A stretch of DNA of 64,000 bases, taken from NCBI GenBank assembly GCA_965238275.1, contig OZ250186.1, forward strand, positions 320,001 to 384,000, given 5' to 3'. This DNA comes from Nitrosopumilus sp. (GTDB lineage Archaea; Thermoproteota; Nitrososphaeria; Nitrososphaerales; Nitrosopumilaceae). The notes beneath the pieces were generated by a model. That model was given only the letters and a program-made list of their open reading frames with translations. It searched no databases and was not told the DNA's origin. A program made the translations under genes and the position numbers. How positions within the stretch are numbered: position 1 is the first letter of the stretch; each line of letters opens with the position of its first letter. Positions 970 through 52,655 of the stretch are shown here, one piece after another.

Positions 970-1007
970 TGGAACGGTGCGTGGCGTTTTTAGGTTTGGC
1001 CGTGCCC
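970..1007. repeat. Degenerate att-like junction, probable distal island boundary
   Basis: tggaacgg (cf. tggaccgg) followed by tttttaggtttggccgtgccc (cf. tttttaggttccgccgtgcct), immediately after the HEAT gene stop. Confidence 0.5.
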
Positions 1008-1098
1008 GCTAGAATGGAGTAATTCCGGTCAGCCCGGATCATGAATCCCGGCCGGGTTGCACAAAGAACCGAAAGTACGCCTGCAAGCCACCTTGTGT

Positions 1099-2079
1099 CT
1101 ACATGGGTGCCCGACTGTGCGTGTGCCCCTTTTGGGTGCCTGTCTTGCCTGATGGAGACGGCGATGCTGTGCGGGGCGGACGGCCCCGCGTGCGCCGCCT
1201 TTGGACGTGGACCGTATTGCGCGGCTCTTCCCACGACTCCTGCTGCCCGCCCAGAAATGCATCCATCCCCGCAGGCGAGGCGCACTCGTATATCTCCTCC
1301 ATGGCAGGCATGAACTTCTCCTTTCCCCTCCAAAACGGAAAGCTGCCCAGCTGCTTGGGCAGGGCTGCATGCATCTCCGGCACGTGCGCAGACATCTCCG
1401 GTTCGCCCGTCACCCTCTCCCGGCCCCAGAACTTGCCCGGATCCGTCGAAAGCGGCTCTGCAGGCAGCAGACCGGCAGGGGCAGCCACCTCCACCGGCCT
1501 GAGATTGGCTGCCTTGAGAAGATCCTCCACGTCGGCTCCGCGCATCTTGAATATGAGGAACGGATCGCGGTCAAACTCCTCTGCCAGGATGTAGTATACT
1601 GCCGCCACGTGCTTGCACGGGTTTGACCAGTCAAAGCAGTCGCAGTCTGTCTTGAGATCCTTGCCCTTGGACGGCAGCAGTGAGTATCCGACTTTGGCAA
1701 AGATCTCCTCCACATCCTCAGGCATCCGGCCGGCCAGCAGGCTTGCGGCAATGTCCGGCCGCGCAAAAAGCTCCGGCACCGCCATCTTCCAGGCCCGCGC
1801 AGGCAGGACCTTGACCTTGATTCCCACCTCGTAGGGCTTCCGCTCAGAGCCCTGCACGCGTCCGGTTACCATGCCATTTTCCACACGCACAGACACCACC
1901 TGGCCCCGGCGGGCATACGTCCTGCCGCGTGCAAGCCGCTCATCTATGTTAAAGTCGTCAAGTATGTTGATCCACCTCTTGGCCCACCAGCTCTGGCCAA
2001 ACGCGCCGCGTTTGGTCTGCGCCTTGATGCCGCCCTTGACCTCCCGGGGCCCTGTGGACCTGTAGTACCAAAACGACAC
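1099..2079 (-). CDS. SWIM zinc-finger protein, partner of SNF2 helicase
   Basis: RLARGRTYAR and CDCFDWSNPCKHVAA (CxCx5CxH SWIM) motifs; GTG start overlaps the SNF2 stop (TAGTG). Confidence 0.9.
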   Translation of the reverse strand: MSFWYYRSTGPREVKGGIKAQTKRGAFGQSWWAKRWINILDDFNIDERLARGRTYARRGQVVSVRVENGMVTGRVQGSERKPYEVGIKVKVLPARAWKMAVPELFARPDIAASLLAGRMPEDVEEIFAKVGYSLLPSKGKDLKTDCDCFDWSNPCKHVAAVYYILAEEFDRDPFLIFKMRGADVEDLLKAANLRPVEVAAPAGLLPAEPLSTDPGKFWGRERVTGEPEMSAHVPEMHAALPKQLGSFPFWRGKEKFMPAMEEIYECASPAGMDAFLGGQQESWEEPRNTVHVQRRRTRGRPPRTASPSPSGKTGTQKGHTHSRAPM

Positions 2080-5000
2080 TACTGTCCTTCCTCCTCTCCC
2101 CCGCCAAGCGACAGCATGTCCCTCAGGTCGTCGTCGGACATCTCCGTCAGCCACTTCTCGCCGGTCCCGACCACCATGCGGGCCACCCTTACCTTGCGCT
2201 CGATCATGCCGTCTATCTTCTCCTCGAGTGTTCCTGCACAGATAAACTTGTGGACTTGGACGTTGCGCTTCTGGCCGATGCGGAAGATCCTGTCTGTAGC
2301 CTGGTCCTCCACGGCCGGGTTCCACCAGCGGTCAAAGTGGAAGACGTGGCTTGCCGCCGTGAGGTTCAGCCCCGTGCCGCCTGCCTTCAATGAGAGGATG
2401 AATATCTGCGGCCCGTCCCGGCAGTTCTGGAAACGCTCGACCATCCGGGTGCGCTGTCCCCGGGGGACGCCGCCATGAAGGAACAGTACCTCCAGCCCGA
2501 ACGTCTCTTGCAGGTGGCGTTTGAGCATGTGGCCCATCTCGGCAAACTGGCTGAATACCAGCGCCCGGTCGCCGGATTCCACCACCTCCTCTAGCATCTC
2601 TGTCAGCCTAGCCAGCTTGCCGGACCGGCCGGGTATGCCGGAGCCGTCGGAGAGGAACTGTGCCGGGTGGTTGCAGACCTGCTTGAGTTTGGATATGGTG
2701 GAGAGTATTATCCCTTTCCTCTGGATGCCCTCGGACTCGTTCAGATCCCTCATGCACTCATCCAGAACGGAGGCGTACAGGGATGCCTGCTCCTCTGTCA
2801 GCGGGCAGAACATCTTTGCCTCCATCTTTTCTGGCAGGTCGGAGATTATGGACTTGTCAGTCTTTAGTCTCCGGAGTATGAACGGCCCGGTGGCACGTTT
2901 GAGCTGCTCTGCTGCCTTGGCGTCCTGTTTTGCCTGGATCGGCACGAAGAACTTGCGCCGAAACTCCTCCCGCGTTCCCAAAAACCCGGGATTCAGAAAC
3001 TCCATGATCGACCACAGGTCGCCTACGTTGTTCTCCACCGGCGTTCCTGTCAGGGCAAGGCGGTATTCGGCCCCCAGCGACCTGACGGCCCGTGCCTGCT
3101 TGGTCTCCGGGTTCTTGATGTTCTGCGCCTCGTCCAACACCACCCCGTCCCAGCTGACCATGCCGAACATGTCGGCATCCCGCTGCATCAGCCCGTAGCT
3201 GGAGACGACGATGGCGTGCTTTTCTGCCGCCTTTCTAAACGCCGCCCCGCGCATCCTGCCTGTGCCGTGGTGGATCATCACAGGCAGCCCGGGGGCAAAG
3301 CGTGCAGCCTCCCGGTACCAGTTGTCCACCACCGACGTAGGGCAGACCAGCAGGACGGGCCGGCTGCCTACCTGCCAGTCGCGCTGCACGAGTGCCAGTG
3401 TCTGGACGGTCTTGCCAAGGCCCATGTCATCTGCCAGGCATCCTCCAAGACCCCACCGGCGGAGAAACGAAAGCCAAGAGTAGCCGCGGACCTGGTACGG
3501 CCGGAGCGTGCCTGAGAACCCTTCGGGTTGCTCAAGATCCCCTATTCCCTCCGTCCCGTCAAGCTGCCCGAGCACCTCGGCAAGCCTGCCGGTGGATTTG
3601 ACGCCGTCGATCTCAAGCCCCCCGGGCGTCTCTTCTGCCCCCAGTGCCATCCGGATCACGTCCTTGAATTGCGCCCTTCCCTTGCCCTTCTTGAGAAACT
3701 TGATGGCAGACTGGATCTCAGAGGCGCTGACCTCCATCCACTGTCCGCGAACCCTGACCAGCGACGACTTCATCTCGGCGATCTCCTCGAGCTCTTCAAG
3801 CGTGACCTTCTGGCCGCCCAGCGCAACCTCCCATTCGAACCTCATTATCGCATCAAGCGACAGCCCCCCATATCCTTTCATTTTGGGTGCCTGCACGCTG
3901 ACCCGCGCTGCAAGCTTGGCCCTTGCGCCCTTGCTAGTCCACCAGGACGGGAGCATGATCCCATATCCTGCCTGCTCGAGTGCTGCGGCCTCGGCTGCAA
4001 GGAACTCGTATGCTCCCGGGGTGTCGACTGCGTGACCTTCCAGCCGGGCGTCCTTCAGGCCTGCGGCAACGCCTCTGCATATGCCCGAGGCCTGTCCGAG
4101 CGAGAGGAGCAAAAATTCCTTGGCATTGGAGCCGCTCCTGTCCAGCACGGCAGCCCCGCCGCCCCATACCTCGGCTGCCGACACTATCAGGCTGGGATCG
4201 TCCCGGGCTTGGAGCAGGTAGCGGACAAACCACGCGCCGCCGGCATCTGCGCCGCCGGCAGGCTCCTCCAGGCGGAAGCAGAGACGAAAGGGGGAGGCAG
4301 TTGATACCGTTATGGATCGTTGCCATCCGTCTATCTGGACGGCAAGTCCGGCCAGGCCAGAAGAATCCCCGTGGGTTATCCCGTCTTCAGACTTTAGGGC
4401 GTAAAGCCAGGAATCGTGCATGCTGTCGAACTTGGCACGGTGTTGCCCGGACGACACGTACGGTGCGGCCCTGCGTACCATGTGGTCAGTCAGCGAGGCG
4501 ACTATCTCTTTGAGCACCACGGCTGCAGGCATCTCGGGGGCCTTCCGTGCGCCAGGCTTTGAAAGCGCCCTTGCCACAGCCGGCATGCGCCGGGCCAGCA
4601 TGCCGAACCTCTCGGCGTCCCTGCCCACAAAGACGGGATTCCACTTTGCCGTGTACCGTCCCCTGTCTTCCTCCAGACCGGGAAGGAACTGCTGCCGCGC
4701 GACCAGAAAGCCTGCAAGGCGCAGCACATCTGCCCAGTACGCCATGTCGGCACCGACTAGCACGCCGGGTGTGACAGTCCGCCTGCCTGCAGACGCGCCC
4801 AATAGGCCCACTGCCTCTCCCGGAGACAGCCTGCGTGCGGCGACTTGCCACGCCGCCATCCTTGTCCCTGCTCGGGACGGGGGAGGCTCTGCGATTATGT
4901 CGCTTGACGGGACAGGGTAGGAACCCCGGGTGGGCAGCCAGACAGTTGCCGTGCACTCCCCGGTCGTCTTTGAATCCGAAGGCAACACGGTCTCCAAGGC

Positions 5001-5159
5001 CCGGGCCAGAGCCTCAGAGTTGGCACCCAGCGGATGCTTCCTTGCCCGGAAGAGCCTTACGCCCTTCCACCAGGGTACAGCGCCTGTACGGTAGTTGCGC
5101 GCCTCCTCCCCCCAGAGAACTATGCTTCTCTCGTGGGCACCGGCGTGAAGAATTATCAT
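2079..5159 (-). CDS. SNF2-family DEAD/DEAH helicase/ATPase
   Basis: LADDMGLGKT, LDEAQNIKN, TGTPVEN, SLKAGGTGLNL, WWNPAVEDQATDR; likely start MIILHA at 5159. Confidence 0.95.
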   Translation of the reverse strand: MIILHAGAHERSIVLWGEEARNYRTGAVPWWKGVRLFRARKHPLGANSEALARALETVLPSDSKTTGECTATVWLPTRGSYPVPSSDIIAEPPPSRAGTRMAAWQVAARRLSPGEAVGLLGASAGRRTVTPGVLVGADMAYWADVLRLAGFLVARQQFLPGLEEDRGRYTAKWNPVFVGRDAERFGMLARRMPAVARALSKPGARKAPEMPAAVVLKEIVASLTDHMVRRAAPYVSSGQHRAKFDSMHDSWLYALKSEDGITHGDSSGLAGLAVQIDGWQRSITVSTASPFRLCFRLEEPAGGADAGGAWFVRYLLQARDDPSLIVSAAEVWGGGAAVLDRSGSNAKEFLLLSLGQASGICRGVAAGLKDARLEGHAVDTPGAYEFLAAEAAALEQAGYGIMLPSWWTSKGARAKLAARVSVQAPKMKGYGGLSLDAIMRFEWEVALGGQKVTLEELEEIAEMKSSLVRVRGQWMEVSASEIQSAIKFLKKGKGRAQFKDVIRMALGAEETPGGLEIDGVKSTGRLAEVLGQLDGTEGIGDLEQPEGFSGTLRPYQVRGYSWLSFLRRWGLGGCLADDMGLGKTVQTLALVQRDWQVGSRPVLLVCPTSVVDNWYREAARFAPGLPVMIHHGTGRMRGAAFRKAAEKHAIVVSSYGLMQRDADMFGMVSWDGVVLDEAQNIKNPETKQARAVRSLGAEYRLALTGTPVENNVGDLWSIMEFLNPGFLGTREEFRRKFFVPIQAKQDAKAAEQLKRATGPFILRRLKTDKSIISDLPEKMEAKMFCPLTEEQASLYASVLDECMRDLNESEGIQRKGIILSTISKLKQVCNHPAQFLSDGSGIPGRSGKLARLTEMLEEVVESGDRALVFSQFAEMGHMLKRHLQETFGLEVLFLHGGVPRGQRTRMVERFQNCRDGPQIFILSLKAGGTGLNLTAASHVFHFDRWWNPAVEDQATDRIFRIGQKRNVQVHKFICAGTLEEKIDGMIERKVRVARMVVGTGEKWLTEMSDDDLRDMLSLGGGEEEGQ

Positions 5160-5487
5160 TATACACGCTTGAGATACAGGCAAATAAAACATGCGTGGTT
5201 TTGGGTGGCATGGTTTTGGCTCGCATCCGTTGCCGCACCATGCCGATCCAACATGCCAACGGACCCTTCGGAGGGCGATGCGCCGCACCGGCTTCACGTA
5301 TGAAAAACCCCGAAACGTCTCGCACGGATCCACCCCAAGGGAGGCACAGGGCCGCCAGAACGAGCGAAGCGGGCGGAGGCGGCTGGCGGGTAAGCGGTAT
5401 GCAGACGGGCATCGTGCCAATTGGCATTAAATTAGATTCAAAATATCGTCCAGTTGCTTTTGTGGCCTAAATCATTCTGGAAGATCA

Positions 5488-5995
5488 TCAGGCCGCATAA
5501 TGGCGGATTGCCTGCTCTATTCGAGAGTATTCCGTATCGGACTTGGCAAGGTACCTGATTTCACCCCACCTGATTTTTGGCCCACAGCGGACTGCCAGTC
5601 TTTGCAGGTCTTCAATGTCCTGGTCACGCCCTGCCCTGAACTTTGCAACAATCAGTCCTTCCAAAGAGATGGCATTGACGGTGGTTCCTTTCCTGTCTGC
5701 CGGAATTGCCTCCGCCGTCTTTAGGATGTGCTCCAGCGGAATGTCATTCAAGTCCCGCTTGTGATATACGTCAATTTTGTATCCCCTTGGCGTGAATTTG
5801 TTATCTCTTGGCTGGTTGATTTTGTATCCCCTAGCCAAAAACTCATCGTTTGTTATCTGTTCGGCAACGACAAAATCCAGATCCAGGGATTGTCGTTGCT
5901 CGCCGGTATGCAGCATGACTGCAACTGCCCCCGACAAACGTGGCGGTCCTAAAATCCCGAGAAATGTCCATGGCTTCCCTAATGAGCGGTATCAT
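5488..5995 (-). pseudogene. Nucleotidyltransferase (AbiEii-like type IV TA toxin), frameshifted
   Basis: MIPLIREAMDISRDFRTATFVG joins AVAVMLHTGEQRQSLDLDFVV if one G is removed from the G5 run at 5928-5932; C-terminal KFRAGRDQDIEDL. Confidence 0.7.
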
Positions 5996-6668
5996 TTGGC
6001 AGCAAGTCCTCCTGAACCTTCCATATGGTGTCTCCTGCAAACCTGACCCTGATTTTTACCACGTCCTTGTGGGTCAGCATGATTGCCGCGGCATCCAAAA
6101 AACTCCGTCCGCCGTTTGCCACGCAGTCAAGAAAGACCCTCTCAATCAAATTTTCAAAGGAGCCGATCTTTGGAAGAAGCACGACGCTTCCCCTTTTTCC
6201 TTCCCGAAACCCGTGGCTTTTCAAAAGCTTGGAGACATCTTCAACATTGTCAACGTAGACATGCAGGTCAAGCGGGGTCTGAAACCTTGTCAATTCATGG
6301 GCCCGGTGGTCAAGCGTTATGATTGAACCATTTGGGAGATGTTTTTTCATAAAGTTAACGTCAGTCGGCTTGTAATGCCTTCCAAACCTCCTGGCTTTTT
6401 TGAGTGACATTAATGAAGAGACGATGCTTTGCAAAACAAGGTACGGTTGGGATACGACCTCCCTTTTTATCGTGAATGTGCCACGGTTGCAGTCTGCCAG
6501 CCCCAACTCCTCCAAACGGATCAGTCTCCTTCTGATGGTTCTAGCCGACAGGCCAGAGGCGTCTTTCAGGCTCTTTAGGTCATAGACTGGACTGGGGGGC
6601 AGCTCCTGTGCAAATCCGATTGCATCCTTTGCCTTTTCAAGCATTGATGCACATTCATCCATATTCAT
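5979..6668 (-). CDS. Winged-HTH protein, AbiEi-like antitoxin/regulator
   Basis: N-terminal HTH (LKDASGLSARTIRRRLIRLEELG), C-terminal ERVFLD motif; overlaps the downstream NTase. Confidence 0.6.
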   Translation of the reverse strand: MNMDECASMLEKAKDAIGFAQELPPSPVYDLKSLKDASGLSARTIRRRLIRLEELGLADCNRGTFTIKREVVSQPYLVLQSIVSSLMSLKKARRFGRHYKPTDVNFMKKHLPNGSIITLDHRAHELTRFQTPLDLHVYVDNVEDVSKLLKSHGFREGKRGSVVLLPKIGSFENLIERVFLDCVANGGRSFLDAAAIMLTHKDVVKIRVRFAGDTIWKVQEDLLPNDTAH

Positions 6669-6821: not shown

Positions 6822-7175
6822 CTACCGCGGGTAAAACGACGGGCATTGGAGGATCATCCAGCTCACCGAAGGGGTATTCGCGCCGCAAGTGGAGCGGAGC
6901 CGGAGGCGCGGATGCAGCAGACGATCCCGGAGATTCTTGGACAGGTTCAGCAGCAAGTCGCGCTTACACTCCGACTCCCCCCTGCCGTGCCGCACCAGCT
7001 GCACCACGAGCTCCTCGAACGTTACCTCCAGTATGTCCTCGAGGAACTCGCACGTTATCTTGCGCAGCGTCCGGGTGTACTTGTCTAGGGTCTCCTTGGA
7101 CTTTATTCCCTGCGCGAACAGGTCCATTGGGGACGCGTCCTTTGCCCTTTCGATCTCGTCTTTTGCCAACTTCAC
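6822..7175 (-). pseudogene. Tyrosine integrase N-terminal fragment
   Basis: KLAKDEIERAKDASPMDLFAQGIKSKETLDKYTRTLRKITCEFLEDIL resembles thaumarchaeal integrase N-termini; homologous to 9996-10139; starts ~40 nt from the att core; truncated. Confidence 0.7.
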
Positions 7176-7216
7176 GTATTCATATGCATATGGAACCCGG
7201 AAAAGCCCTGTAAATA

Positions 7217-7350
7217 GTGGACCGGAAGGGGTCTGCAGCGATAACAAGGCATTTTTAGGTTCCGCTGTGCCTGTAAAATCATCCAGTGTCATTCCAGCAG
7301 CAACCCGTCACCAGTTTGGATCACCTGCCAGATAACAAACCAAGCGATTT
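7217..7350. repeat. attP-like junction (tRNA core + conserved arm)
   Basis: gtggaccggaaggg (7217-7230) is identical to 52581-52594; followed by tttttaggttccgctgtgcctgtaaaatcatc; upstream ~85 nt resembles 52495-52580. Confidence 0.85.
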
Positions 7351-7566
7351 TGTGATGTGATGGAGACAGTACTTACGACGGTTGTCCCACTACCATGAAA
7401 ATTATTCACATATAGGACATGGGGTTTGAGGCATACGTACCGGGAATGCAAGTCAACATGGCTTACGGCTGTTAACTGCCGCGCCACGGCAGAACGCGTC
7501 GTTTGTCCCTTTTTACCACAACCGCCGCTACATGATGGCAGTCTTTTTTGTACTGAATTTGTAGAG

Positions 7567-7842
7567 TTAGTCTCTGCCATATACTGACTTGTGATCTCCC
7601 ACGACCACCAGCAGAATGATCTTTTGTTGGCTGATGACCTTGTAGATTAGCCGATACGAGCGTCCAAGCTCATATGCAAGGTATCCTTTGAACTTGCCTT
7701 TTTTTGGAATGCCTGCATCTTCAGGGTTTTCAGATTTTGCAAGGTGTAATATGGCATCATCCACGCGATTTTGCAGTTGTGATGAAAGTTTTTTGTAGCT
7801 GCTGACAAACAGATTTGTTCTCTCTATCCGCCACAAAATCAT
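7567..7842 (-). CDS. RelE/ParE-family toxin
   Basis: 91 aa; F.SSYKKL...YRLIYKV...LLVVVGDHKSVY typical of the RelE superfamily. Confidence 0.85.
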   Translation of the reverse strand: MILWRIERTNLFVSSYKKLSSQLQNRVDDAILHLAKSENPEDAGIPKKGKFKGYLAYELGRSYRLIYKVISQQKIILLVVVGDHKSVYGRD

Positions 7843-8025: not shown

Positions 8026-9379
8026 AACTCTGTTTCCTAATTACGCTCGACACAGATACTCGTCTGTGCAATTCTGCCTACGTCGTCGTCTTGCCCCCTT
8101 CCCTTGCAGTCCTTGGGCCGGGCTTGTAGGCTTGCACGATCCTTGGCGTGCCGTACCCGTTGTCGATTGCAGTATCGATCATCTGGTTGTACAGCTGCAC
8201 CTTTCCGTATATCTCGGCCTTGACGTTCTCCCACTTGCGCGCGCTTATGCACTCGCCCAACACCCGCTTGAACGTGGAAAATACAATCTCGACTGACCAC
8301 CGGTCGTTGTACCCTGACTCCCTGCGCCACGCCTTCTGGAATTCCCTCTTTTGTTCGCGCGTGAGGCCTGCAAACTTGCGTTCTGCCGTCTTGTCCATGC
8401 AGTCCAGGTCCCCCAGCTGCCTGAATCCTGCCTCCTTGCGGGGCATGCACCCGTTCGCCTTTCCGGCAAAGTCGATGCGGACGGGAATCAGCGGCTCGAT
8501 TCCCTGCTCGTCGCAGTACCTGCGGATCTTCTGGGTGTCGTACGCGCCGTCGGCTGCCGCCTTGGTGCCTGCAGAAGTGTCTGAGTTTGGTGATTTTTTT
8601 GCATTTGCAAGGGCCTGCCCCACCAGTTCCTCAAACTGCGGAGAGTCCCCGCACTTGTCGTCGGTTATGGCCACGGCGTAGATCTTTTTGGTTTTGGCAT
8701 CCACCCCGACGTGCAGCTTTATGAAGCCCCGCCTGGTCCCCCACTTTTCTGTCATCCAGTCGCCGCGGTTTGTGGGCTTGAGTCCAGTGGAGTCGAAGGC
8801 AAACAGCTTGATCTCGGCCCGGGTGCCGCCGTCTGAGAACCACGCAGAAGCCGTGCCGCTACCATCATCATTGTCTGCAACAGTGCAGCCAAGCTTGGCC
8901 ATCCTCTTCTGGAACGCCGAGTACGTGGGCGCGTTTTCCTTGCCGACTATCGTCTCTGCCAGACCCTGGAGCTGCCTGTACCTTATGCCGGTGGCGTTTT
9001 TGAACAGGGATGCTGCTGCAAAGCACGCGTTTGAAAATACGTACGGGCGGCCTACCTTCCCGCAGTTTAGCTTCTCGACTCCCTGAGTCAGGATCTCCGG
9101 GCTTATCTGGAGCGTCCACAACTGGCCGCGGTCTATGTACCTGCGGTCATCGTACTGGAACCGGCGTTCTTTGGATTTGAAAGATTTTTTAGCCTCATGC
9201 GTGCCCGTTTTGTCTGGAGAGGATGTGTTTTCAGTCATGGCGGTAACCTGACTGTCTGCACACCTCTCTGATCAATACGGTTTTCTATTGAAGATGTTTG
9301 ATATTATGTTCAAATTCAACTGATCTGGCCTAATTCTGAACCTGTTGGGTGTGACTGGCGATAATTAGGAAACAGAGTT
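8026..9379 (-). mobile_element. IS5-family (IS903-like) element, copy 1; transposase 8078-9238
   Basis: 18-bp TIR aactctgtttcctaatta, 8-bp TSD catctttc; DSTG / KLHVGVD / ADGAYD / RWSVE motifs. Confidence 0.93.
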
Positions 9380-10139
9380 CATCTTTCAGGCAGAACCATC
9401 GCCTCAAGGCGGCACCGGGTCCAAAATAGGCAGCAGGCGGTAACGGGCGCCCCATGCGCTCGGCCCACGCGTGGTCGTACAGTTGCAACGCGTCGTACGC
9501 CTCCAGCGTTATGAATGTCATTACAGGTAGGCCGAACCGCAGTACACGTACAGTGCAGCGCACGCTACCAGGTAGCTTTCAGTCTCTGGATCCAGCAAGA
9601 GGTCTTCTCCTACCCGGTACACCGGCACCAGATCTTTCCAGTTCATGTCCAGTGCGCCGCACCGCACGCCCGAGCTTGCCAGCACCAACACCAGCACTTT
9701 TTCCACCTGGGGGCGCGCGTACTTGAGCATCATCATTACGTCCTACCGGGTTCAGTCCACCAAATCGGACATGTTGTCTGATTCCGGGTACGTCGCGTAG
9801 AGTCTCTTTCACAGGATCGCCACGTAGTTCATGTCAAAGTGGTTCTTGATCGTTTTGAAGTAGTTGCCAAACGATGCCGGGTTCAGGCAGTCGGAATCAC
9901 CCCTGGGAAGCAGCGTTGTCCTCCTGCAATTTTCGGGACACGTTGAGTATCAGGTCGCGCGTCCATTCCGGATCCTTCTTGGTGTGCGTGACCAGCTACG
10001 CGTTCTTTGAACTCGTCTTCCAGCATCTCCTCAAGGAAGCTGCACGGGACTTGGCGCAGCGTCCTAGTGTACTTTTCCAGCGGCGGCGGCGGGATATTGC
10101 GTCCTTCCTTCTAACGATCTTGTCTTTTGTCGACTTCAT
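9380..10139 (-). pseudogene. Degraded tyrosine integrase
   Basis: Multi-frame fragments: MKSTKDKIVRRKDA, KVLVLVLASSGVRCGALDMNWKDL (catalytic Arg box), FITLEAYDAL. Confidence 0.75.
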
Positions 10140-10182
10140 ATATTCAGATACTAGGAAACCCAGAAAAATTATGTTAATAGAA

Positions 10183-10250
10183 TGGACAGGAAGGAATTTG
10201 GTATGAAATTGTAACTTTTTTAGGTTCCGCCGTGCCTGCAAAATCATCTC
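10183..10250. repeat. attP-like junction (tRNA core + conserved arm)
   Basis: tggacaggaaggaatttg matches 16/18 to 52582-52599; followed by ttttttaggttccgccgtgcctgcaaaatcatctc. Confidence 0.8.
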
Positions 10251-10590
10251 ACCCATCACATTCTTTGAACCGACTGTACAGAACCGGTTGAAATGGTACG
10301 GTCTGGAGGCAGATTCGTTCCAATATAGATCCGTGCCCTGACTGAGTCGTTCTCGGACAACACAGTACTTCGTAGTAGCATACCATGACACATTATCAGG
10401 CATCAATCCACCATAGTTATATCAGGAACCGTTCTGACACAGGTTATCCCATAGTTTGTGGTTTGATTGGTTCGATTTTGCCTGAACTTGTTTGTGTCAC
10501 TATAGTTACATTCGAATACCGCGTGTGAGAAACTTTCATATCGATATATTTGAGAATCAATTCTAGATATAGGTGCACAGGGCATACGTA

Positions 10591-10650: not shown

Positions 10651-10702
10651 AAAACATAATGTGATTAGGCAAACACTACATGAAGATGAGGCTGCAAGTG
10701 CC

Positions 10703-11740: not shown

Positions 11741-11742
11741 TC

Positions 11743-13251: not shown

Positions 13252-13254
13252 TAA

Positions 13255-15300: not shown

Positions 15301-15670
15301 GCTGAGGATGAGCTACCGCTCGCAGAACCTGCTTGCGCAGCTGAAGGCCAGGACGGGCCTTACGCCGAACATCACGGGAAGGTTTGCCATCTGCATGTCG
15401 CTCAATGATCCATCTCCGCCAAATCCCGAAGAGTTTGATGAGAACGGCTCTGAGATACACCCGTCGGTACTGTTTGGTGAGTACGAGGACATCTTCATGG
15501 CAGTCATGGTCATGCGGCTGAGAAAAGACGGACTTGATCCGCAGCTGTACCTTAACAGGATGGTCAGGGCGCACTTTAACCGCGGCACGATCGCATTGTT
15601 TGCCAGGGTGCATGACTTGGTTGACTTTGACCGGATCGTGCGGCAAGAGAGAGAGGCGCAATCTGGATGA
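15287..15670 (+). CDS. dndE: DNA sulfur modification protein DndE
   Basis: LKARTGLTPNITGRFAICMSL...RAHFNRG; probable TTG start at 15287. Confidence 0.92.
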   Translation: MRFSRLRMSYRSQNLLAQLKARTGLTPNITGRFAICMSLNDPSPPNPEEFDENGSEIHPSVLFGEYEDIFMAVMVMRLRKDGLDPQLYLNRMVRAHFNRGTIALFARVHDLVDFDRIVRQEREAQSG

Positions 15671-19876: not shown

Positions 19877-19974
19877 GAAAGTACGTCCAAGCGTAAATTA
19901 TTGGATTACTAGGAACAACCCATTATTTTGCCCACTAAATCTAAAAACTTTTAAGATATTTTGCAACGACAGAT

Positions 19975-20175: not shown

Positions 20176-20176
20176 C

Positions 20177-33359: not shown

Positions 33360-33394
33360 GATAAGTTAATTAATGTCTACTTGGGATATGTTCT

Positions 33395-34500: not shown

Positions 34501-34606
34501 CCACGAACGCTTTCGAAGTGCCTGTGAATGCTCCGGGATGCGCCCCTGTCTGTCTTGATACCATGGTAGCACCAAGACACGGCAGGAAGAAAAAACAGGA
34601 CAAATC

Positions 34607-34732
34607 CAAGGAGATTCAGTCTATAATGATGACTTTTTGGGTTCCGCCGTGCCTGCAACACCGTCTCGTGCCATTCCAGCGGCAATCCATCATCGGTTTG
34701 GATCGCCTGCCAGACAACAAATCAGACATTTT
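34607..34732. repeat. att-arm repeat copy
   Basis: caaggagattcagtctataatgatgactttt is identical to 51600-51630; continues gggttccgccgtgcctgcaa...tttggatcgcctgccagacaacaaa, similar to 7257-7339. Confidence 0.85.
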
Positions 34733-35994: not shown

Positions 35995-36028
35995 ATTATA
36001 AAACTTGGAAAAACAGTGTCTCACAGAA

Positions 36029-42962: not shown

Positions 42963-42972
42963 ACAAAAACAC

Positions 42973-43476
42973 CTAGTAGGGACGGAACGTCTGTCGTTGG
43001 GTGCTAACGCCTTGTGAAGAGTAACTTCTGTCGGTCGCCCAGTATCCGTTACCGTTTTGTGGTTCTTGTCCGGGAGTGCGTTTGATGGGAATGCGTGCCT
43101 CGATCTGCTGTTTTTTTACATTTGGTAACGAGCCCCAATTCACGCTATGTGTCAGGAACGAAAACCACACTGAGTTAGAAACATCTGCGCGTGCAAAAAC
43201 GCTACCAGATTTTCCATCCTGTAACGAACCGTCCTGCCGAACTTCATAGCGCAGGGCAACAACTATCTGATCGTTTCGCTTGAACCCATATTCTACTCGT
43301 GCCAAGTAACCCCCGGCCAAAAGTTCGGTCAGCTCTTCATAGTAATCCCATATCAAGGATTCATCTGGTTGTCCGTAATAGGCTAGCATACCTCGGAGAT
43401 CTGCCATTACCTTAGAGGCAATATATTTCGCACCGGTTCTGGTAAACGTGGAACTTGTTGTAAATGTGTTAGTCAT
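42973..43476 (-). CDS. cap7: Bacterial-type HORMA domain protein (Cap7)
   Basis: T/S-rich N-terminus, AKYIASKVMADL, GYLARVEYGF; located between CD-NTase and TRIP13. Confidence 0.88.
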   Translation of the reverse strand: MTNTFTTSSTFTRTGAKYIASKVMADLRGMLAYYGQPDESLIWDYYEELTELLAGGYLARVEYGFKRNDQIVVALRYEVRQDGSLQDGKSGSVFARADVSNSVWFSFLTHSVNWGSLPNVKKQQIEARIPIKRTPGQEPQNGNGYWATDRSYSSQGVSTQRQTFRPY

Positions 43477-43811
43477 GTCTCCCTAACCCCTGAAAGATGA
43501 CCCGAGAATGACTTGCCAAGATTCCACCGCCCTTTCCTTGGTGGTAGCATAAAAAGCCTCGCGTATGGCGTCCGCTGCCTCTTCTGCGGCCTCAACAAGC
43601 GCGGCACGATCATTAACTGAATACCGGTTGGTGACATTGTTATCAGCGTTGACTGGATCGAATACTTCGATGGCGGCTCCCGTAAGGCTTGGAAGGTCGC
43701 TAGGTGGGTAGCAGTCGCCGAATGCCACCCGTTCCTCAAGGTCGGTCTTTACTATGTAACTGAAGAATTTTTCAAGAATTCGCGGATAGTCATTCAATTC
43801 CATGCCAGAAT

Positions 43812-45375
43812 AGAAGATATGCGTAATCCACCCATTTTGCCAACCCGGCCATAAAAAACCGGAAAAATACGGCCTAAAACTAGTCGTGTCTGGTATGTGG
43901 CAAGTCCGTTCACCCCAAAATCCAAAATGACGTGCGCAGCCTTGCAGCACTTCATCGTGCCCTGAATTCTACTTGACCGGAGCTTGGGAGCAGGCCCTGT
44001 CCCAGTCTACTGACGTCTTCCACTGCCCCGGTGGTGGCGGGCCCTTTTCCATGCAGTCCCACAAAAGGTTCAGGTTTACCAGCCCGGTGATCACGTTGAA
44101 CTCCCGGTTGAACTGCGCCGCGTTGCCGTCGTACGGGTCGGCAAGACGCGCGTAGCGCTTGAGCCTGCCTATGGCGTGCTCCACCAACACCCGGGTGGAG
44201 TTGATCCTGTGGTTGTGCTTTTTTTGCTCCGGCGTCAGCGGCGTGTCCCTGGTCTTCTTGTACGGGATCTCCGGCGTGGTGCCGGGCAGGTGGTCTGCGA
44301 TTCCCTGGTAGCCGCGGTCGACGAAGGGGTGGCACCTGTCTGATTCTGGCAGATCCGGATCGTGCATCGCCTCCTCCCACTTTCCAAACGGCATGGGGCG
44401 TTCCTTGAGCAGCGTGATGTCGCCGACTGACCCGACGGTGCTTTTTGATATGCCGATCACCACCCCGTCCCGGTTGGCGTACACGTTGGTATTGTTGGTG
44501 AACTTTTTCTTCTTGCCGGAGTATTTCATGCGCCGGACTGACTTTACAGACGGGCGCTGCACGGGGCAGTGCGTGCCGTCTATGAATATCTCGCCCCCGT
44601 CGGACCCGGGCACGATCTTCTTGAAATCCTCCTTGGTCGGGGCAGCAGCTACCTCCTCGGATATGTTGTCTGCCGTCGGAAGTATTCCTGCCAGCATCGC
44701 ATCCATCACCGGAATGTACCGGGACACGGTGGTCTGGTCTATCCCGAAGAATGCGGCAAGCACGCCTTGGGCGGGGTTGTCCTTTTTGCGGATAAGTGCT
44801 AGGAGCAGTGCGTGTCTCAGGTACAGTTTGCACCGGTTTCCGGGATCGGAGACCCGGGATGCGTTATCGCGGAACAGCGGCATCTGGCCCGAATGCGTCA
44901 GAAACACCTTGGCCCGCTCCAGCATGTACCGGAACTGTTCCCCGTCTGCCAGCGTGACATGGCGGAGCTTGTCCCCGTCGCGTATTATGCCGTCTAGCAC
45001 CTCTAGCAGGTGCAACGCTGGCCCCTTGCCGGGGTTCCAGCCATCGTTCCTGCTCTTCCACAGGCCGCGTTCAAGGCCCAACTCCCTGTCTTTCTGTTCC
45101 AGCTTTTTGTCTTTCTGCTTTAGAATATTTTTTAGGGTTTTGTCTTTCTGTTCCAGCTTTTTGTCTTTCTGTTCCAGCTTTTTGTCTTTCTGTTCCAGCT
45201 TTTTGTCTTTCTGTTCCAGCTTTTTGTCTTTCTGCTTTAGAATATTTTTTAGGCTTCTGTTTTCCTGTTCCAATCTGTGCATGATCTGATCAGGCGAGTC
45301 TGGCATTTGATGTGAGACGCGATCGTGCCTGATCTAAATTTATCGATGTGAACAGGGGGATTACGCATATTTTCT
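43812..45375 (-). mobile_element. IS5/ISL2-like element, copy 2; transposase 43969-45306
   Basis: TIR agaagatatgcgtaatcc / ggattacgcatattttct, 3-bp TSD AAT; close paralog of 26836-28035. Confidence 0.93.
45087..45253 (-). repeat. 21-bp tandem repeats encoding QKDKKLE heptads
   Basis: tgtctttctgttccagctttt repeated, plus a duplicated LKNILKQKDKK block. Confidence 0.9.
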
Positions 45376-46315
45376 AATCGGCCAAGTGGGCCACGAGTAG
45401 TTCCAATAAGAAGGACTTGCATTTGAATGCGGCGTTTTCATCTTTTCGTTGCTTGGCCCACCATTTGACCAAGCGCACAACTTGGGCAAAGTGCTGCGGG
45501 TTGGATGTCTTCCGAACACGGATAAACTTAAGGTGAAGCGGGATGCTGGTAAGGAGCCTCTCACCGGTATACTTGTCTATCAGATATCCATAGTCTTTCT
45601 CATCTCCCTCATAGATGACGGGAACAACATCTACATCCAGTCCGCTTCCTCGGAAATGAATTTTCACACAATGGGGGGAACTCGTATCAAAGTCGCTCGG
45701 ATCCTTTTGTGGGTACGCCTCGCGGAGGCGCTCCCCCACCCACGGCACCACGTCTTTTTCACTACCAGGAGTTTGATCCTTCTTTACATATACTGCGACA
45801 TCAAGGTCGTTGATGGTGCGCAGGGCGGTTCCTTTGGCAACGCTTCCGGCATGCAGCATTTTGACCAACCCGAACCCGGGGTTGTCCGCAATGTGCCGTT
45901 CAAGGATATCGCGGAGGCTGTTCACCTGTTCCCTGTATTTGTGCACGGAATCTTGCGGAAGATTAATTCGTTCTTCTGCGAAGGAAAGTATGTCCGCATG
46001 GGTTATGAATGAGTCTGTCATCTACACTCCTCTCATGCATATAGGATCTTAAGAATGATTCGCTCTAGAGTGTTGTGACGCAGTGCTGGACATATTGTTT
46101 CGCTCATTATCCAGCAAAATCAGGCATGAATTCAGGATAAAATGATCGAAACTTTTTGTCTCCTACTACGCATAATTAGCAAATTGCCAGACATGTCTCT
46201 AGGTAATCGGCTTGGAGGCCACCATCCTGCTCTTGGGCGCTGAACATGTAGTACGTCAGGTTCTGCATGAACCTGAAAGGCAGTCTAGAATGGAGCCCCC
46301 AATCGCCGGAACCGG

Positions 46316-47452
46316 TCATGACGATAAAGCCAGTTCTTTGATCAAATACACGTGTTCCAGCGGGGAGTTCTTGATCATCCTCCTGCTGATCAAGCCGCTA
46401 GGAATCTCCTCTAGGTACTCTTTTCTTCGCGTGCGTGCATCATCCACATCTACGCGTCCTAGCAAGTCCAGATTTCTCATGATGGCGTGCATGTACCCCG
46501 TCTCGTCAGTTCCTGAAGGCGACGGAGATCCCTCCAAGTGCCTTTGGAGGGACTTGGCAAAGAGGAGCATCAGCAACACATCGGTGATGTGGTTAGATTT
46601 TTTATAGGAATAAAGCCTAGAAAGATAGCTCCCCTGAAAGCCATTATAGTGGCTAAGCAGATCCGATGCGACAAGTGCGTTGGTGTCTAGCGGCAAGAAA
46701 CTGCCAAGCGATTGCACTATGCTGGAGATTATGTCGGATACCGTGTAAGGCGGGTCGCGCTTGAAGCGGCCTACCTTGAACCCTGTCAGTTTTTGATACG
46801 AGTCGTAGGCTATCGCGAGATCCTTCGGGTTGGCTTGCCGCAGCAGCGTGGCAATATCGTAGATCTGCTTGACGATCTCGGTACGGTTTTCGGCTTTGAT
46901 CCCCACCGTCCCGATCGCCAAGGACGTGATCTTGTCAGCTATCAAGGTGCCTCTTGACAGTATTGTCATATCCTGGAGTGTCCCAAAATCCAGTATCTGC
47001 GAACCGGCCCGGATACGCTGCGTGTCAAGGTGCAGGTCCGCGCCGCAGAATGCGTCCACCTTCACGCTCTCTTGCCTGCCCAAGCAGGAGTCGTACATTA
47101 TCCTGTATGAGACGAAATTCTCTATCGGAAGGGGTTTTCTGGGAATGATCTTACTACACCGAAGCCCGTCCACGCTGCCATTTATGTCGTTCATGACGCC
47201 TTCGATCTCATCTGCAGAATGGCTGCTGAGGACGTCGATGTCCTTGCTCATGCGTTGTACCATGAAGTTGGGTTGGTGAAACGGCATGCACATCCCGCCC
47301 CTCGTGGTGCAGTGAATCTCTTGGGTGATGTGCTTGTGTATTTCAAAACACATGATGAACTTCTCGACAAGCGGGTCGGCGGGAAACCCGTACTTTTCAG
47401 AAATTCCGAGGATCCTCTCCCTAGTGAGCATCTCCGAGTAGTATAGAGCCAA
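46316..47452 (-). CDS. AbiEii-like nucleotidyltransferase toxin
   Basis: VEK...RGGMC...QRMSKDIDV, VKVD, LIADKITSL, KQIYDI. Confidence 0.82.
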   Translation of the reverse strand: MALYYSEMLTRERILGISEKYGFPADPLVEKFIMCFEIHKHITQEIHCTTRGGMCMPFHQPNFMVQRMSKDIDVLSSHSADEIEGVMNDINGSVDGLRCSKIIPRKPLPIENFVSYRIMYDSCLGRQESVKVDAFCGADLHLDTQRIRAGSQILDFGTLQDMTILSRGTLIADKITSLAIGTVGIKAENRTEIVKQIYDIATLLRQANPKDLAIAYDSYQKLTGFKVGRFKRDPPYTVSDIISSIVQSLGSFLPLDTNALVASDLLSHYNGFQGSYLSRLYSYKKSNHITDVLLMLLFAKSLQRHLEGSPSPSGTDETGYMHAIMRNLDLLGRVDVDDARTRRKEYLEEIPSGLISRRMIKNSPLEHVYLIKELALSS

Positions 47453-47455
47453 AAC

Positions 47456-49336
47456 CTACTCCTCCGGGAGGTACTCCTCGATCTCGTTTAGGATTTGCCT
47501 GCGCCTGGCAAGCGACCGCAATTTTGCGGGTCTTGCCAAGCCGGCATCGAGCAGCTCGTCTAGCACGAGGATCAGATCGTCATGGTAAAGGGGAATCCTA
47601 TCCCGGGTAACCTCAAAGTAGAGGTCCAGCCAAGCCTTCTCCGGCCCGGCCCAAGCAAGGGAAAGCCTCTCCCTGTATTCGCGAATTACGATGAACTTGC
47701 TGTGCTCTGTCCCATACAGCACGGCTGCAAGATCCTGCCTGCTCGGGTTTAGCACGACTGTAAACCCTCCTGCATGATCCGATATGGCCTCAAGCAGGCT
47801 CTGGCCGGCTCCCGGCACCGTATGGATCGTGTATACGATCTTGCCGTGGGTGTTGTGCAGGAACGGCACCAGCGTGGAAAGGCCGGTAAACTGAAAGTCA
47901 TGCTCAAAGGTCTCCTTCAGGTAGTCGTGCAGCTCGACAAGGTCGTTTTGCAAGGAATATCCGGGGAGATGAACCGCCTTTTCCCTCGGGGCACTCTTAC
48001 CGGCATGCCGGGTGAGGCGATCCCTGACAAACTCGTTCAGCATCCTGTTCCTGCGCTCGATGAAGGAGCGGCGTGACGGATCCTCTGCGGCCAATTCGGC
48101 CTCTATGCGAATCAGCCCGACAAGGAACAGCGGGTTCTTGAACAGGTGGAACGCCGGGTTGTTCCTTCCGATGCCGACGCGAACCCCGTTATTTACGGTC
48201 TCGACATCGAAGGTGTCCGAATCGTTGAACTCAAAATCAAAGATTGCGTCCCCCTTCCGCTGGACGAATCTGCCGGCCTCTCGCAGCAGCAACTTTGTGT
48301 TCTCGGAGCTCATTCGGGTGTCCAGAGGCGGGAGGTTGGGGTTCGGGTCCAATGCCAGCACAGATTCAATGTCAGACATGCCCTCTTTCGGGGACGAGGC
48401 CTGCCGCATGATCATCTTCACGACGGCGTCGGCAATGAAGCCGGATGCTGCCTCGCGGTACTCCGGCGACTCGGTCAGGAAGCCGGTCTTGTGGAAGTTG
48501 ACCGGGACGTGATCCAGGGACAGCTCGCCTGCCACCCTTGCGGCATTGGGGTGGAGTTTTATTCCAAACTTGTCAAACGCACTGATCAGCCTTCCGTTGC
48601 GGTACAGGTGTATTCCGTAGTCGCCTTTTATGGAGCGCCTCGCAAGGAGCCCGACCCAGCCAGTCATCCTACCGCCGGCAGTCTCTATGCTTACCGGGTG
48701 CTTCGAGCCGTCCACCAGTTTGGGCAAAGAAGGCTTGCAGGGGCGGGAGTTGACCAGTATCCGAACCTGGCCGCGTTCGATGTACGGCCCGTATCTGATC
48801 CCAAACCTACGGCGGAAGTTTAGTATCTGGTTTGGGTATAACGGCACCTTGATTTTGCTTATCATTATCTGGGTTCCGCGCCAACCTCCTTCCCTGGCAA
48901 TCTTCTCGATTTCAAAGTTGGTCCAGTTTTTAGACGCGTCGTTAAGCCATAGATCCTCGTCGTACCTTGCAGTAAACATAAAACTCGATCCCGGTACCGT
49001 GGTGCGTATGGTAAAGGCCTTTCCAAGGCTCGAGCACGCGCTCTTCAGGCCGAGCCCGAACTGTCCCAGCTTGCCTTTCTTTGTTTCCTTGGCAACAGTC
49101 AGCGCTTCCCTGAGCCCCTCAGAGTCCATCCCGCATCCGTCGTCGGACACCTCAATCTGCCCCAACCTAAAGTGCAAGATGACGCTGATCGTCCCCGTAT
49201 CGTCAAGCCGTGCGTCGATGGCGTTGTCTATCAACTCTGCCACCGCCTGCTCTGTCCTGTATCCGACCAGGCCGAGCTTCTTGATCAGGCTCTTGTCAGG
49301 CGTTATGTCGACTGTTATCTTTGCCATGCTGATCAC
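47456..49336 (-). CDS. GHKL (MORC/MutL-type) ATPase fused to an AbiEi-like C-terminal domain
   Basis: ELIDNAIDA, DDGCGM, GQFGLGLKSA, GTQI, YRNGRLI, NFHKTGF; C-terminal FTGLSTL...GPEKAWLDL. Confidence 0.78.
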   Translation of the reverse strand: MISMAKITVDITPDKSLIKKLGLVGYRTEQAVAELIDNAIDARLDDTGTISVILHFRLGQIEVSDDGCGMDSEGLREALTVAKETKKGKLGQFGLGLKSACSSLGKAFTIRTTVPGSSFMFTARYDEDLWLNDASKNWTNFEIEKIAREGGWRGTQIMISKIKVPLYPNQILNFRRRFGIRYGPYIERGQVRILVNSRPCKPSLPKLVDGSKHPVSIETAGGRMTGWVGLLARRSIKGDYGIHLYRNGRLISAFDKFGIKLHPNAARVAGELSLDHVPVNFHKTGFLTESPEYREAASGFIADAVVKMIMRQASSPKEGMSDIESVLALDPNPNLPPLDTRMSSENTKLLLREAGRFVQRKGDAIFDFEFNDSDTFDVETVNNGVRVGIGRNNPAFHLFKNPLFLVGLIRIEAELAAEDPSRRSFIERRNRMLNEFVRDRLTRHAGKSAPREKAVHLPGYSLQNDLVELHDYLKETFEHDFQFTGLSTLVPFLHNTHGKIVYTIHTVPGAGQSLLEAISDHAGGFTVVLNPSRQDLAAVLYGTEHSKFIVIREYRERLSLAWAGPEKAWLDLYFEVTRDRIPLYHDDLILVLDELLDAGLARPAKLRSLARRRQILNEIEEYLPEE

Positions 49337-51215: not shown

Positions 51216-51255
51216 GGAAGGGGCCTGCGACTATAACATGGTATTTTTAGGTTCC
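51216..51255. repeat. att-like junction remnant
   Basis: ggaaggggcctgcgactataacatggtatttttaggttcc aligns without gaps to 7224-7263. Confidence 0.75.
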
Positions 51256-51599
51256 ATCACCAGAATCCACAGTGATTGCAGTCTAGAGGGCTTCGCACCC
51301 ACGGCGGATGCAGATCTACACACATTTCACGAAATAACGACAGATGGCCATCGGGGGCTTACAATACCCCCTTTTTTTTCATGCATGTTGTTTGAAGGTT
51401 ATTTTCTGCGTTAGTCTAAGGAATGATTATGTAACCTCCCCCATGTTTCCGTGCTCAGACCAATGCAGCACGCCAGTATTCTGCATGTTCCAAGGGAACC
51501 TGTTAGATGAACTTAATACACTGCGGAAAACACACGACGTAGTATGTCGGGCAACGCAGCGGTTATCGACAACGAGAAGGTAGTATTTCTAGACCAACT

Positions 51600-51700
51600 C
51601 AAGGAGATTCAGTCTATAATGATGACTTTTTTTAGGTTCCACCGTGTCTGCAAAACATCTCGCGTCAGTCCAGCGACAACCTGTCATAGGTCTAGATAGC
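51600..51700. repeat. att-arm repeat copy
   Basis: 31 nt identical to 34607-34637, then ttaggttccaccgtgtctgcaaaacatctc. Confidence 0.8.
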
Positions 51701-51824
51701 CAACCATGCGACTAGCTGCATGGTAATTTCAGCCGATCAATTGCTTTTTATGTCATTTTGTGGTACATGGTGCATGTTAGAAGGCAGCACGAATCTAACG
51801 GTTGATGCAAAAGCACATGTCAAC

Positions 51825-52160
51825 ATGAAGCGTAACTATCCGGATGAATCCGACGAACATGTGATAGCCAGACTTCTGAGCAACGTTCCCGGCGGGCAGG
51901 CCGTAACCAGGAAACGACTTGACGAGATCAGTGAAGGAACTGCGGAGGCGGGGTTGCACATACTGTGCAACGAGCTTGCAAAGATACGAAAATATCCGGA
52001 CGAGTCATACGGGTCTATCGTGGACAGGATAATACGTCTTGACAAGGAAGAGGACGTTATGACAAGCGAGGATTTGAGGGACATTGAGGAAAGCCTTGCA
52101 GATGCAAGGAACACGCACCCTGCCAGAACAATACACGAGGCACCGACTTCTAGCAGATAG
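51825..52160 (+). CDS. Putative archaeal antitoxin (internally duplicated YPDES motif); start uncertain
   Basis: YPDESDEHVIARLL / YPDESYGSIVDRII and EDLRDIEESLAD; located upstream of RelE. Confidence 0.55.
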   Translation: MKRNYPDESDEHVIARLLSNVPGGQAVTRKRLDEISEGTAEAGLHILCNELAKIRKYPDESYGSIVDRIIRLDKEEDVMTSEDLRDIEESLADARNTHPARTIHEAPTSSR

Positions 52161-52224
52161 CTTGAAAACCTAACGGTTCTGTAGGCATAATCGATTATTA
52201 ATTAAGAGGCATTCATACAGTGGT

Positions 52225-52479
52225 ATGGCTTGGAAACTCGCATGGTTGCCGAGGGCCGAAAGGGAGTTGGAGAAACTGGATCCCGAAATTCAACGGCGCA
52301 TCCGCGACAAGATCGGCGATTGCATTGACAATCCGCATCATTACGCGACACGCCTTACCAATCTTCCGTATTACCGGGTGCGTGTGGGAAAATATCGCAT
52401 AATCTTAGACCTGGACGAGAATATCCGGACAGTCGTGGTCATGAAAATAGATCACAGGGGCAGGGTTTATGACAGATGA
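52225..52479 (+). CDS. RelE/StbE-family toxin
   Basis: AERELEKLD...YRVRVGKYRII...IDHRGRVY. Confidence 0.92.
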   Translation: MAWKLAWLPRAERELEKLDPEIQRRIRDKIGDCIDNPHHYATRLTNLPYYRVRVGKYRIILDLDENIRTVVVMKIDHRGRVYDR

Positions 52480-52494
52480 TGCGTGGGGCAATCA

Positions 52495-52538
52495 GGCGCG
52501 TCCTTTGACCTTTCAATTTTGCCTTTTGCCAACTTCAC
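52495..52538 (-). pseudogene. 5' stub of integrase next to the tRNA
   Basis: GTG-start VKLAKGKIERSKDA, homologous to the starts at 7175 and 10139. Confidence 0.6.
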
Positions 52539-52581
52539 GCCTACTGATACGCGTGGAACCCAGAAAAGTCATGTAAATATG

Positions 52582-52655
52582 TGGACCGGAAGGGATTTGA
52601 ACCCTTGATCCGATGCATGCCATGCACCTATCCTACCAGACTAGACGACCGGCCC
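52582..52655 (-). tRNA. tRNA-Ala(GGC)
   Basis: Cloverleaf GGGCCGG/CCGGTCC with G3:U70, anticodon stem GGTGC/GCATC around GGC, T-arm AAGGG-TTCAAAT-CCCTT. Confidence 0.95.

Follow-up and report, generated by a model that had tools for sequence, protein, structure and literature searches.

How a 51.6-kb insertion carrying several defence systems came to lie between a HEAT-repeat gene and the tRNA-Ala(GGC) gene of a Nitrosopumilus genome is the question that this locus raises. The window is the whole 64,000-nt stretch analysed (G000:C1:320001-384000) from that genome (G000; one contig of 2.22 Mb, G+C 52.7%), and coordinates below are window positions unless marked as genome positions. Its flanks encode Alba, MCM and an archaeal Hel308-type helicase (Pfam), and the island between them is divided by six joints (J0 to J5) into elements E1 to E6 (Table 1). 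We conclude that the island is probably a tandem pile-up of decayed, related integrative elements at the 3′ end of tRNA-Ala(GGC). That related elements had integrated repeatedly at this one tRNA was already proposed in a sequence-only reading of the locus, and the evidence assembled here supports it.

To place the insertion, both flanks were searched for in 24 genomes of the same genus, all species representatives with one genome per species, and were found on a single contig in 20. The flanks are 763-810 nt apart in 18 of these, which accommodates nothing beyond the HEAT gene and the tRNA, as against 53.9 kb in G000; the remaining two have spacings of 2.8 kb (G006) and 8.1 kb (G017). It had been anticipated that relatives would have the HEAT gene directly beside tRNA-Ala, and at all four sites read (G013, G020, G008 and G006) the HEAT stop codon abuts the tRNA 3′ end, so that G006 is also empty at exactly that point. 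Altogether, 19 of these 20 Nitrosopumilus relatives lack the insertion at the site, and in G000 it lies exactly at the tRNA 3′ end, which is the arrangement expected of a tandem tRNA-integrated island.

The closest relative, G017, has a 7.7-kb island at the tRNA-Ala site. Window positions 1-5258 match it with 86% identity, a stretch that takes in the left joint, the SWIM gene and the SNF2 gene, and the next G017 match beyond 5258 is the tRNA itself, the material nearer the tRNA being different. Since the leftmost element is common to G000 and G017, it must have been in place before these species separated, which makes it the oldest. The homology stops just upstream of the SNF2 gene, at 5258 rather than at the joint at 7217. 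The sequence-only reading would have this module boundary coincide with a repeat, which it does not, and its position speaks against a clean module-by-module exchange.

The joints share a 27-nt arm. A search allowing ≤3 mismatches found it at J1, J2, J3 and J5 (Table 1), all on the + strand and with ≤2 mismatches, and gave 0 matches in 100 shuffles. At ≤6 mismatches on both strands of the whole 2.2-Mb genome there are seven copies, five of them inside the island; those added are at window position 987 (five mismatches) and genome positions 2,073,981 (exact) and 1,389,729 (opposite strand). A profile search of the genome (nhmmer) for the arm unit gave no further significant copy. The remaining joint, J4, is cut off 12 nt into the arm and retains 24 nt of the sequence in front of it, and was recovered by nhmmer at E 7.7e-6 with a model from which this copy was absent. 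The six same-orientation junctions of the sequence-only reading are therefore borne out, as four strong copies, one diverged and one truncated. That reading had also raised the prospect that the arm is a genome-wide repeat resembling a miniature inverted-repeat transposable element (MITE), which it is not; each of the seven copies adjoins a tRNA-like core, always facing it the same way.

From an alignment of all copies, the far-side unit measures ~105 nt and consists of a variable core resembling a tRNA 3′ end, a T-arm-like stretch, the 27-nt arm and a tail of ~45 nt. A copy of the tRNA 3′ end had been claimed for every junction; it is clear at 7217 (the last 13 nt, 13/13) and 10183 (16/18), while 51216 and 970 have it in part, and 34607 and 51600 resemble the tRNA poorly. 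The type of core tracks the target tRNA, being of Ala type (GGAAGGG) at 7217, 10183 and 51216, and of Val type (GGATGGG) in the unit at 1,389,729, where a 1.6-kb element that begins at tRNA-Val(CAC) (G000:C1:1388143-1389790) has its far end; this element has an integrase remnant 45 nt behind the tRNA. Lys-like cores are present in the units of relatives. The other component is an integrase-side arm of ~85 nt, a promoter-like region plus the first integrase codons, with six copies in the genome (at 7217, 10183, tRNA-Ala, tRNA-Lys, tRNA-Val and genome position 2,073,853). With arms on both sides of the core, 7217 and 10183 constitute full attP-like joints. The joint at 970 forms the chromosomal border, and J3, J4 and J5 consist of the far-side unit without an integrase-side arm; the proposal of attP-like sites left behind is thus borne out for J1 and J2.

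The arm is an imperfect palindrome, with a T-run and AGG, a 10-nt centre, and CCTG followed by an A-run; the truncated unit J4 breaks within this centre (51246-51257). RNAalifold on 11 units predicts a structure of -4.6 kcal/mol with nine pairs, all inside the arm, none of which (0/9) has a compensatory change. A palindrome lacking covariation is more in keeping with duplex DNA bound by a protein than with a strand that folds. Three other identities for the unit were considered and rejected: a structured RNA (no compensatory changes and no Rfam match, Rfam finding only the tRNA), a small protein gene (the frame is not consistently open), and a MITE or insertion-sequence end (only seven copies, and no inverted repeats around the units).

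The arm is also narrowly distributed. At ≤3 mismatches it occurs in three of 151 genomes of the genus, namely G000, G017 (three copies) and G151 (two copies). A scan of public genome contigs yielded real copies only in two Nitrosopumilus records (G017 and G151), nine other stretches being chance bacterial matches, and a scan of public metagenome contigs yielded 19 stretches, none with a flanking unit. This distribution, to which the public scans add nothing real, points to a young, clade-restricted family of elements rather than a general repeat. In G017, three arm units (200-330 nt) are arranged in tandem in a 6.4-kb insertion (G017:C1:563677-570112) at the stop codon of a methionine-synthase (homocysteine methyltransferase) gene, with the displaced original gene end at the far side; the site is empty in G000.

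Integrase remnants on the - strand begin at 7175, 10139 and 52538, 42-44 nt to the left of a core or of the tRNA, and share their first residues; a spacing of about 40 nt had been noted for these three places. The remnants at 7175 and 10139 match intact paralogues in the genome as well as many database homologues. With 20 family members as queries and E values up to 5, no further remnant was found in the island, and none for E3, E4 or E5. As had been supposed, the integrases of the island are lost, there being no intact integrase or recombinase inside it. Two intact paralogues are encoded elsewhere, 460 aa at genome position 72,433 and 421 aa at 75,142, which are 43% identical to each other and 36-38% identical to the island remnants. 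They lie tail to tail (G000:C1:72433-75142) with no cargo between them, and an arm-like sequence is located ~95 nt upstream of the first.

An AlphaFold model of an intact paralogue (predicted local distance difference test score, pLDDT, 77.7) was compared with the PDB using Foldseek, giving 14 matches at E ≤ 0.001; all those listed are tyrosine recombinases or integrases, led by XerA, XerH and Cre, with lambda Int lower down (E 3.9e-3). Alignment with PF00589-positive recombinases of the same genome by hhalign gave 95.3% probability and E 2.2e-8 over 329 columns, and residues R169, R303/R304, H332 and Y342, whose catalytic roles are assigned through that alignment, are invariant across 20 sequences. 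By these comparisons the family belongs to the tyrosine recombinases and has their two-domain fold. It is present in 51 of the 151 genomes. In eight of 29 loci a tRNA on the same strand (Lys, Val, Arg or Thr) ends 44-51 nt ahead of the integrase gene, and in 15 the distance is at most 200 nt, so the usual arrangement in this family has the gene starting ~40 nt from a tRNA. G151 has two intact integrases adjacent to tRNA-Lys with the same integrase-side arm (E 6e-25 and 7e-20, neither being in the search model), and at the far end of these two elements no unit or repeat was found within 19 kb. A related-locus search with the intact integrase as query gave no match. In the tRNA-Lys(TTT) island of G000 (G000:C1:258297-268000), an insertion sequence breaks the integrase gene after codon 37, and a gene for a PLD-nuclease/SNF2-type helicase lies further in.

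A plausible history for the island can be put together from these parts. Each element would belong to one family, with a tRNA-proximal tyrosine integrase starting ~43 nt from the tRNA end and a unit of ~105 nt at its far end. Recombination between the attachment site of the element and the tRNA 3′ end would integrate it and restore the tRNA, and each new arrival would push the older elements away, leaving younger ones nearer the tRNA. A joint between two elements would then resemble an attachment site, composed of integrase-side arm, core and far-side arm. Decay presumably followed, with integrases truncated, frameshifted or deleted, and ten insertion sequences would have invaded the island and rearranged its ends, such that the defence cargo and toxin-antitoxin genes are what persists. 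The insertion, its joints, the integrase remnants, the fold and tRNA linkage of their family and the cargo are what the sequence and model comparisons establish; the order of events, the point of crossover and the role of the arm as the protein-binding part of the attachment site are what we infer.

Several observations weigh against this history. Three of the six joints (J3, J4 and J5) fit it only if deletions or rearrangements are assumed; no decayed integrase-side arm and no integrase remnant is found to the left of 34607, 51216 or 51600, and all three match the tRNA-Ala end weakly. The integrase has no Pfam match at E ≤ 1, PF00589 included, and a PDB sequence search gave a best E of 1.1 with a single protein and 0 matches with a profile. 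NCBIfam XerA gives it 25.4 bits against a cut-off of 220, and the family is too diverged for the curated Pfam and NCBIfam models. No locus was found in which an intact integrase, a tRNA and a far-side unit occur together, and in the best complete example, the tRNA-Val element, the integrase is dead. The 6.4-kb insertion of G017 has no tRNA and no integrase of the same family within 8 kb. Lastly, the stepwise gain is judged from one genome per species.

The alternative that survives best, while unlikely, is that the joints are still active and that the integrase-less modules are non-autonomous cassettes excised, moved or swapped by an integrase encoded elsewhere, in the manner of cis- and trans-mobilisable elements and, loosely, of an integron. 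One hint in this direction comes from the tRNA-Val element. The interior of E2 (7277-10079, minus its insertion sequence) is at least 98% identical to it, including the same integrase frameshifts, and the element holds a 99% identical copy of the RelE/ParE toxin region of E2; the shared frameshifts indicate that the interior was copied after the integrase had died. However, the ends are far more diverged (~80% identity for the far-side arm and ~60% for the integrase-side arm), which is not what simple excision and re-integration would give, as this would carry the ends along, and gene conversion may explain the likeness equally well. An empty site for the tRNA-Val element is not definable, as its flanks are non-syntenic in four relatives and have no match at E ≤ 1e-10 in a fifth (G013).

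A second hint is a 1.43-kb insertion at genome positions 2,073,827-2,075,258, bounded by an 8-bp repeat. It holds a full joint at 2,073,945 and no more than 13 codons of an integrase, and neither G151, whose flanks are contiguous and 91% identical, nor G017 has it at this locus. A 19-mer with three copies in the genome, the one found ahead of the arm at 34613 and 51606, forms its right end, and the left end is arm-like; joining the two would recreate a unit of the J3 type, which points to an element without integrase having recently entered a pseudo-site. The 1.43-kb insertion encodes a 46-aa ribbon-helix-helix protein; in G151 (C1:999.8-1000.6 kb) the gene for this protein forms a tandem array of about six copies with a 144-nt period. 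Short integrase-side arms with 13-23 integrase codons have been kept three times, and the two intact paralogues are candidates for a source of integrase. Against such mobility stand the low identity between these paralogues and the island remnants, the G017 homology boundary away from any joint, the absence of a conserved hairpin or covariation in the unit, and the composition of the modules, which are multi-gene and on both strands. It is doubtful that a small Nitrosopumilus clade carries non-autonomous modules (far-side unit of ~105 nt, integrase-side arm of ~85 nt and the first 13-23 integrase codons) that are still moved or exchanged in trans. Were this true, whole defence systems would undergo cassette-like exchange in archaea, and the island would be a live, re-sortable store and no graveyard.

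It is quite improbable that the island, instead of being assembled stepwise at tRNA-Ala, owes its bulk to one or two arrivals of a large composite element already holding relic joints. The tandem units of G017, inside an insertion away from any tRNA, and the internal joint of the 1.43-kb insertion indicate that relic joints travel as passengers, and J3 to J5 are without integrase-side arms and Ala-type cores. Nevertheless, E1 is common to G017, so that at least two steps are needed, J1 and J2 have the Ala-type cores expected for integration at tRNA-Ala, and E6 adjoins the tRNA with an integrase-side arm of its own. It is highly improbable that the arm is no part of an attachment site and that what lies at module ends by chance is a terminator, a short repeat or a small gene's 3′ end. 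Although an ORF-like (open reading frame-like) frame of weak conservation enters the unit in several copies and T and A runs border the palindrome, the few copies always adjoin a tRNA-like core in one relative orientation, terminal inverted repeats are lacking around the units, the gene downstream of the arm varies between copies, the frame is not consistently open and Rfam has no match. We therefore retain serial integration at tRNA-Ala as the probable origin of the island.

Table 1. Features of the island and its borders, in window positions
Feature	Position	Strand	Basis or remark
HEAT-repeat gene, chromosomal left flank	365..964	+	Pfam HEAT_2, E 5.7e-18
J0, left island end: decayed tRNA 3′-end remnant and diverged arm (987-1013)	970..1013	+	Same joint in G017
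E1: SWIM zinc-finger protein (1099-2325) and SNF2 helicase (2079-5420)	1099..5420	-	Pfam SWIM, SNF2-rel_dom, DUF3670; PADLOC ZorD/DpdE-like
E1: nucleotidyltransferase (5488-5937) and 229-aa protein (5979-6668)	5488..6668	-	Pfam DUF6036 at cut-off; AbiEii only E 0.0077
E1: integrase remnant, N-terminal 79 aa	6939..7175	-	tblastn E 4.5e-26 (residues 1-79), 63% identity to homologue P0039
J1: integrase-side arm 7134-7216, core 7217-7229, tRNA-like stretch, arm 7252-7278, conserved tail	7134..7323	+	
E2: RelE/ParE-type toxin (7567-7842) and overlapping 90-aa ORF (7308-7580)	7308..7842	-	NCBIfam RelE_StbE 37.5 bits; Pfam ParE-like
Insertion sequence inside E2 integrase pseudogene	8027..9376	-	Flanked by 9-bp duplication CATCTTTCA
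E2: integrase pseudogene, aa 1-254, frameshifted, cut by insertion sequence	9423..10139	-	tblastn best E 2e-56 (residues 33-216)
J2: integrase-side arm, core 10183-10200, arm 10217-10243	10098..10296	+	Exact arm match
E3: dndB, dndC, dndD, dndA, HNH gene, pbeA, pbeC, dnd-associated gene, 801-aa gene	10661..25146	+	
Five insertion-sequence copies: IS481/630-like, DDE_Tnp_4, three IS66	25170..33377		Pfam; repeated elsewhere in genome
J3: far-side unit alone, arm 34634-34660	34602..34705	+	Without integrase-side arm at left
E4: two HNH / HTH-HNH proteins	36005..38229	+	Pfam HNH_3, HTH families
E4: type III CBASS	40573..46021	-	SAVED nuclease 40573-42027, TRIP13 42024-42962, HORMA 42973-43476, split cyclase
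E4: AbiEii-like nucleotidyltransferase (46316-47452) and GHKL ATPase (47456-49336)	46316..49336	-	Pfam AbiEii 45.3 bits, HATPase_c_3; PADLOC AbiEii, MzaB-like
J4: truncated unit	51216..51257	+	nhmmer E 7.7e-6
J5: far-side unit, arm 51629-51655	51594..51699	+	93% identical to J3 over 40 nt before arm
E6: 146-aa protein and ParE toxin (52225-52479)	51720..52479	+	Pfam ParE_toxin 45.5 bits
E6: integrase remnant (23 codons from 52538) and integrase-side arm 52497-52580	52470..52580	-	Arm 80% identical to J1
tRNA-Ala(GGC), integration target	52581..52655	-	ARAGORN; Rfam tRNA 51.7 bits

The cargo of the modules, which are 1 to 24 kb in size, was annotated with PADLOC, Pfam and NCBIfam (Table 1). Gene content is as the sequence-only reading had given it, except that what was called 'AbiE' in the first module matches a nucleotidyltransferase only weakly, and PADLOC has no match for this gene pair. 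The dnd and pbe genes of E3 are identified by PADLOC (DndB, DndC, DndD, DndA, PbeA and PbeC, E down to 1e-184), in agreement with Pfam and NCBIfam. A search for an intact Dnd-Pbe element found dnd genes in 32 of the 151 genomes of the genus at ≤71% identity, and thus no recent donor. In the type III cyclic-oligonucleotide-based antiphage signalling system (CBASS) of E4, the cyclase is present as two ORFs, 43483-43950 and 45374-46021 (PADLOC model positions 4-217 and 213-323), split by an insertion sequence at 43801-45388, and since the gene is split the CBASS is probably inactive. Beside the split cyclase (43483-46021), the HORMA, TRIP13 and SAVED nuclease genes look whole. No conjugation genes are present in the island elements.

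Ten insertion-sequence copies, ~14.9 kb in total, are located in the island, with an eleventh just past the tRNA (Pfam and genome repeat map). One insertion-sequence family is found both at 8027-9376, within E2, and at 52696-54086, on the chromosomal side of the tRNA. Small repeats are also present: 21-nt tandem repeats of four to six copies in the 5′ parts of two transposase ORFs (29597-29701 and 45078-45272), and an 18-nt AT-rich repeat in four tandem copies (49487-49575) between the GHKL ATPase gene and an IS630-type element.

As we read it, the island offers a clean, dated case of defence-island assembly in an abundant marine ammonia-oxidising archaeon, the oldest element being common to a sister species and the younger ones lying nearer the tRNA. 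It links Dnd-Pbe, a type III CBASS and further defence systems to Nitrosopumilus elements that target tRNA genes, and the definition of an integrase family together with both attachment-site arms helps to set element borders in other thaumarchaeal genomes.

The locus had also been described as an integron-like array. It has in common with integrons an ordered array in one orientation, a repeated site between modules and defence genes among the cargo. In integrons, attC sites fold as imperfect hairpins, and the cassettes are mostly single promoterless ORFs in one orientation. The comparison fails on these features, as the island has no adjacent integron-type integrase with an attI site and common promoter and no supported hairpin, its modules hold several genes on two strands, and the integrase remnants are inside the array, one per element, each module having presumably brought its own integrase originally.

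Serial integration at one tRNA is instead a known route of island formation, already described for Thaumarchaeota, for the tycheposons of Prochlorococcus and for Dehalococcoides. A related process is described for streptococcal integrative elements, in which site-specific tandem accretion leaves att-flanked, integrase-less elements that a neighbour can mobilise; these are tied to conjugation, unlike the island, which is without conjugation genes (PMC5704250). The ssrA islands of Dehalococcoides are likewise in tandem at a small-RNA gene and separated by repeats of its 3′ end, although they are bacterial and their cargo is metabolic instead of defensive (PMC3146451). In Prochlorococcus, successive tycheposon integrations at one tRNA push older elements further into the island, where partial tRNAs and integrase fragments are left (bioRxiv 10.1101/2020.12.28.424599). 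The integration model, the defence genes in the cargo and the marine setting are alike, whereas tycheposons are bacterial, have an unrelated integrase lineage and have been shown by polymerase chain reaction to excise, the present island being known from its sequence (bioRxiv 10.1101/2020.12.28.424599).

The closest comparison is with the integrated elements of Thaumarchaeota, which use XerC/XerD-family integrases and tRNA 3′ targets, with attachment sites of median 17 bp, and whose tyrosine-recombinase elements form arrays through re-use of a site (Krupovic et al. 2019, PMC6563490). They share with the island the phylum, the tRNA 3′ target, insertion sequences inside the elements and defence cargo (PMC6563490). 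The 27-nt arm and 105-nt unit are not described in the passages of that survey compared here, and its supplementary tables, which list attachment sites, could include a related unit (PMC6563490). The tandem arrangements reported there are of proviruses and casposons, and a six-joint, 51.6-kb stack at one tRNA is not among them (PMC6563490).

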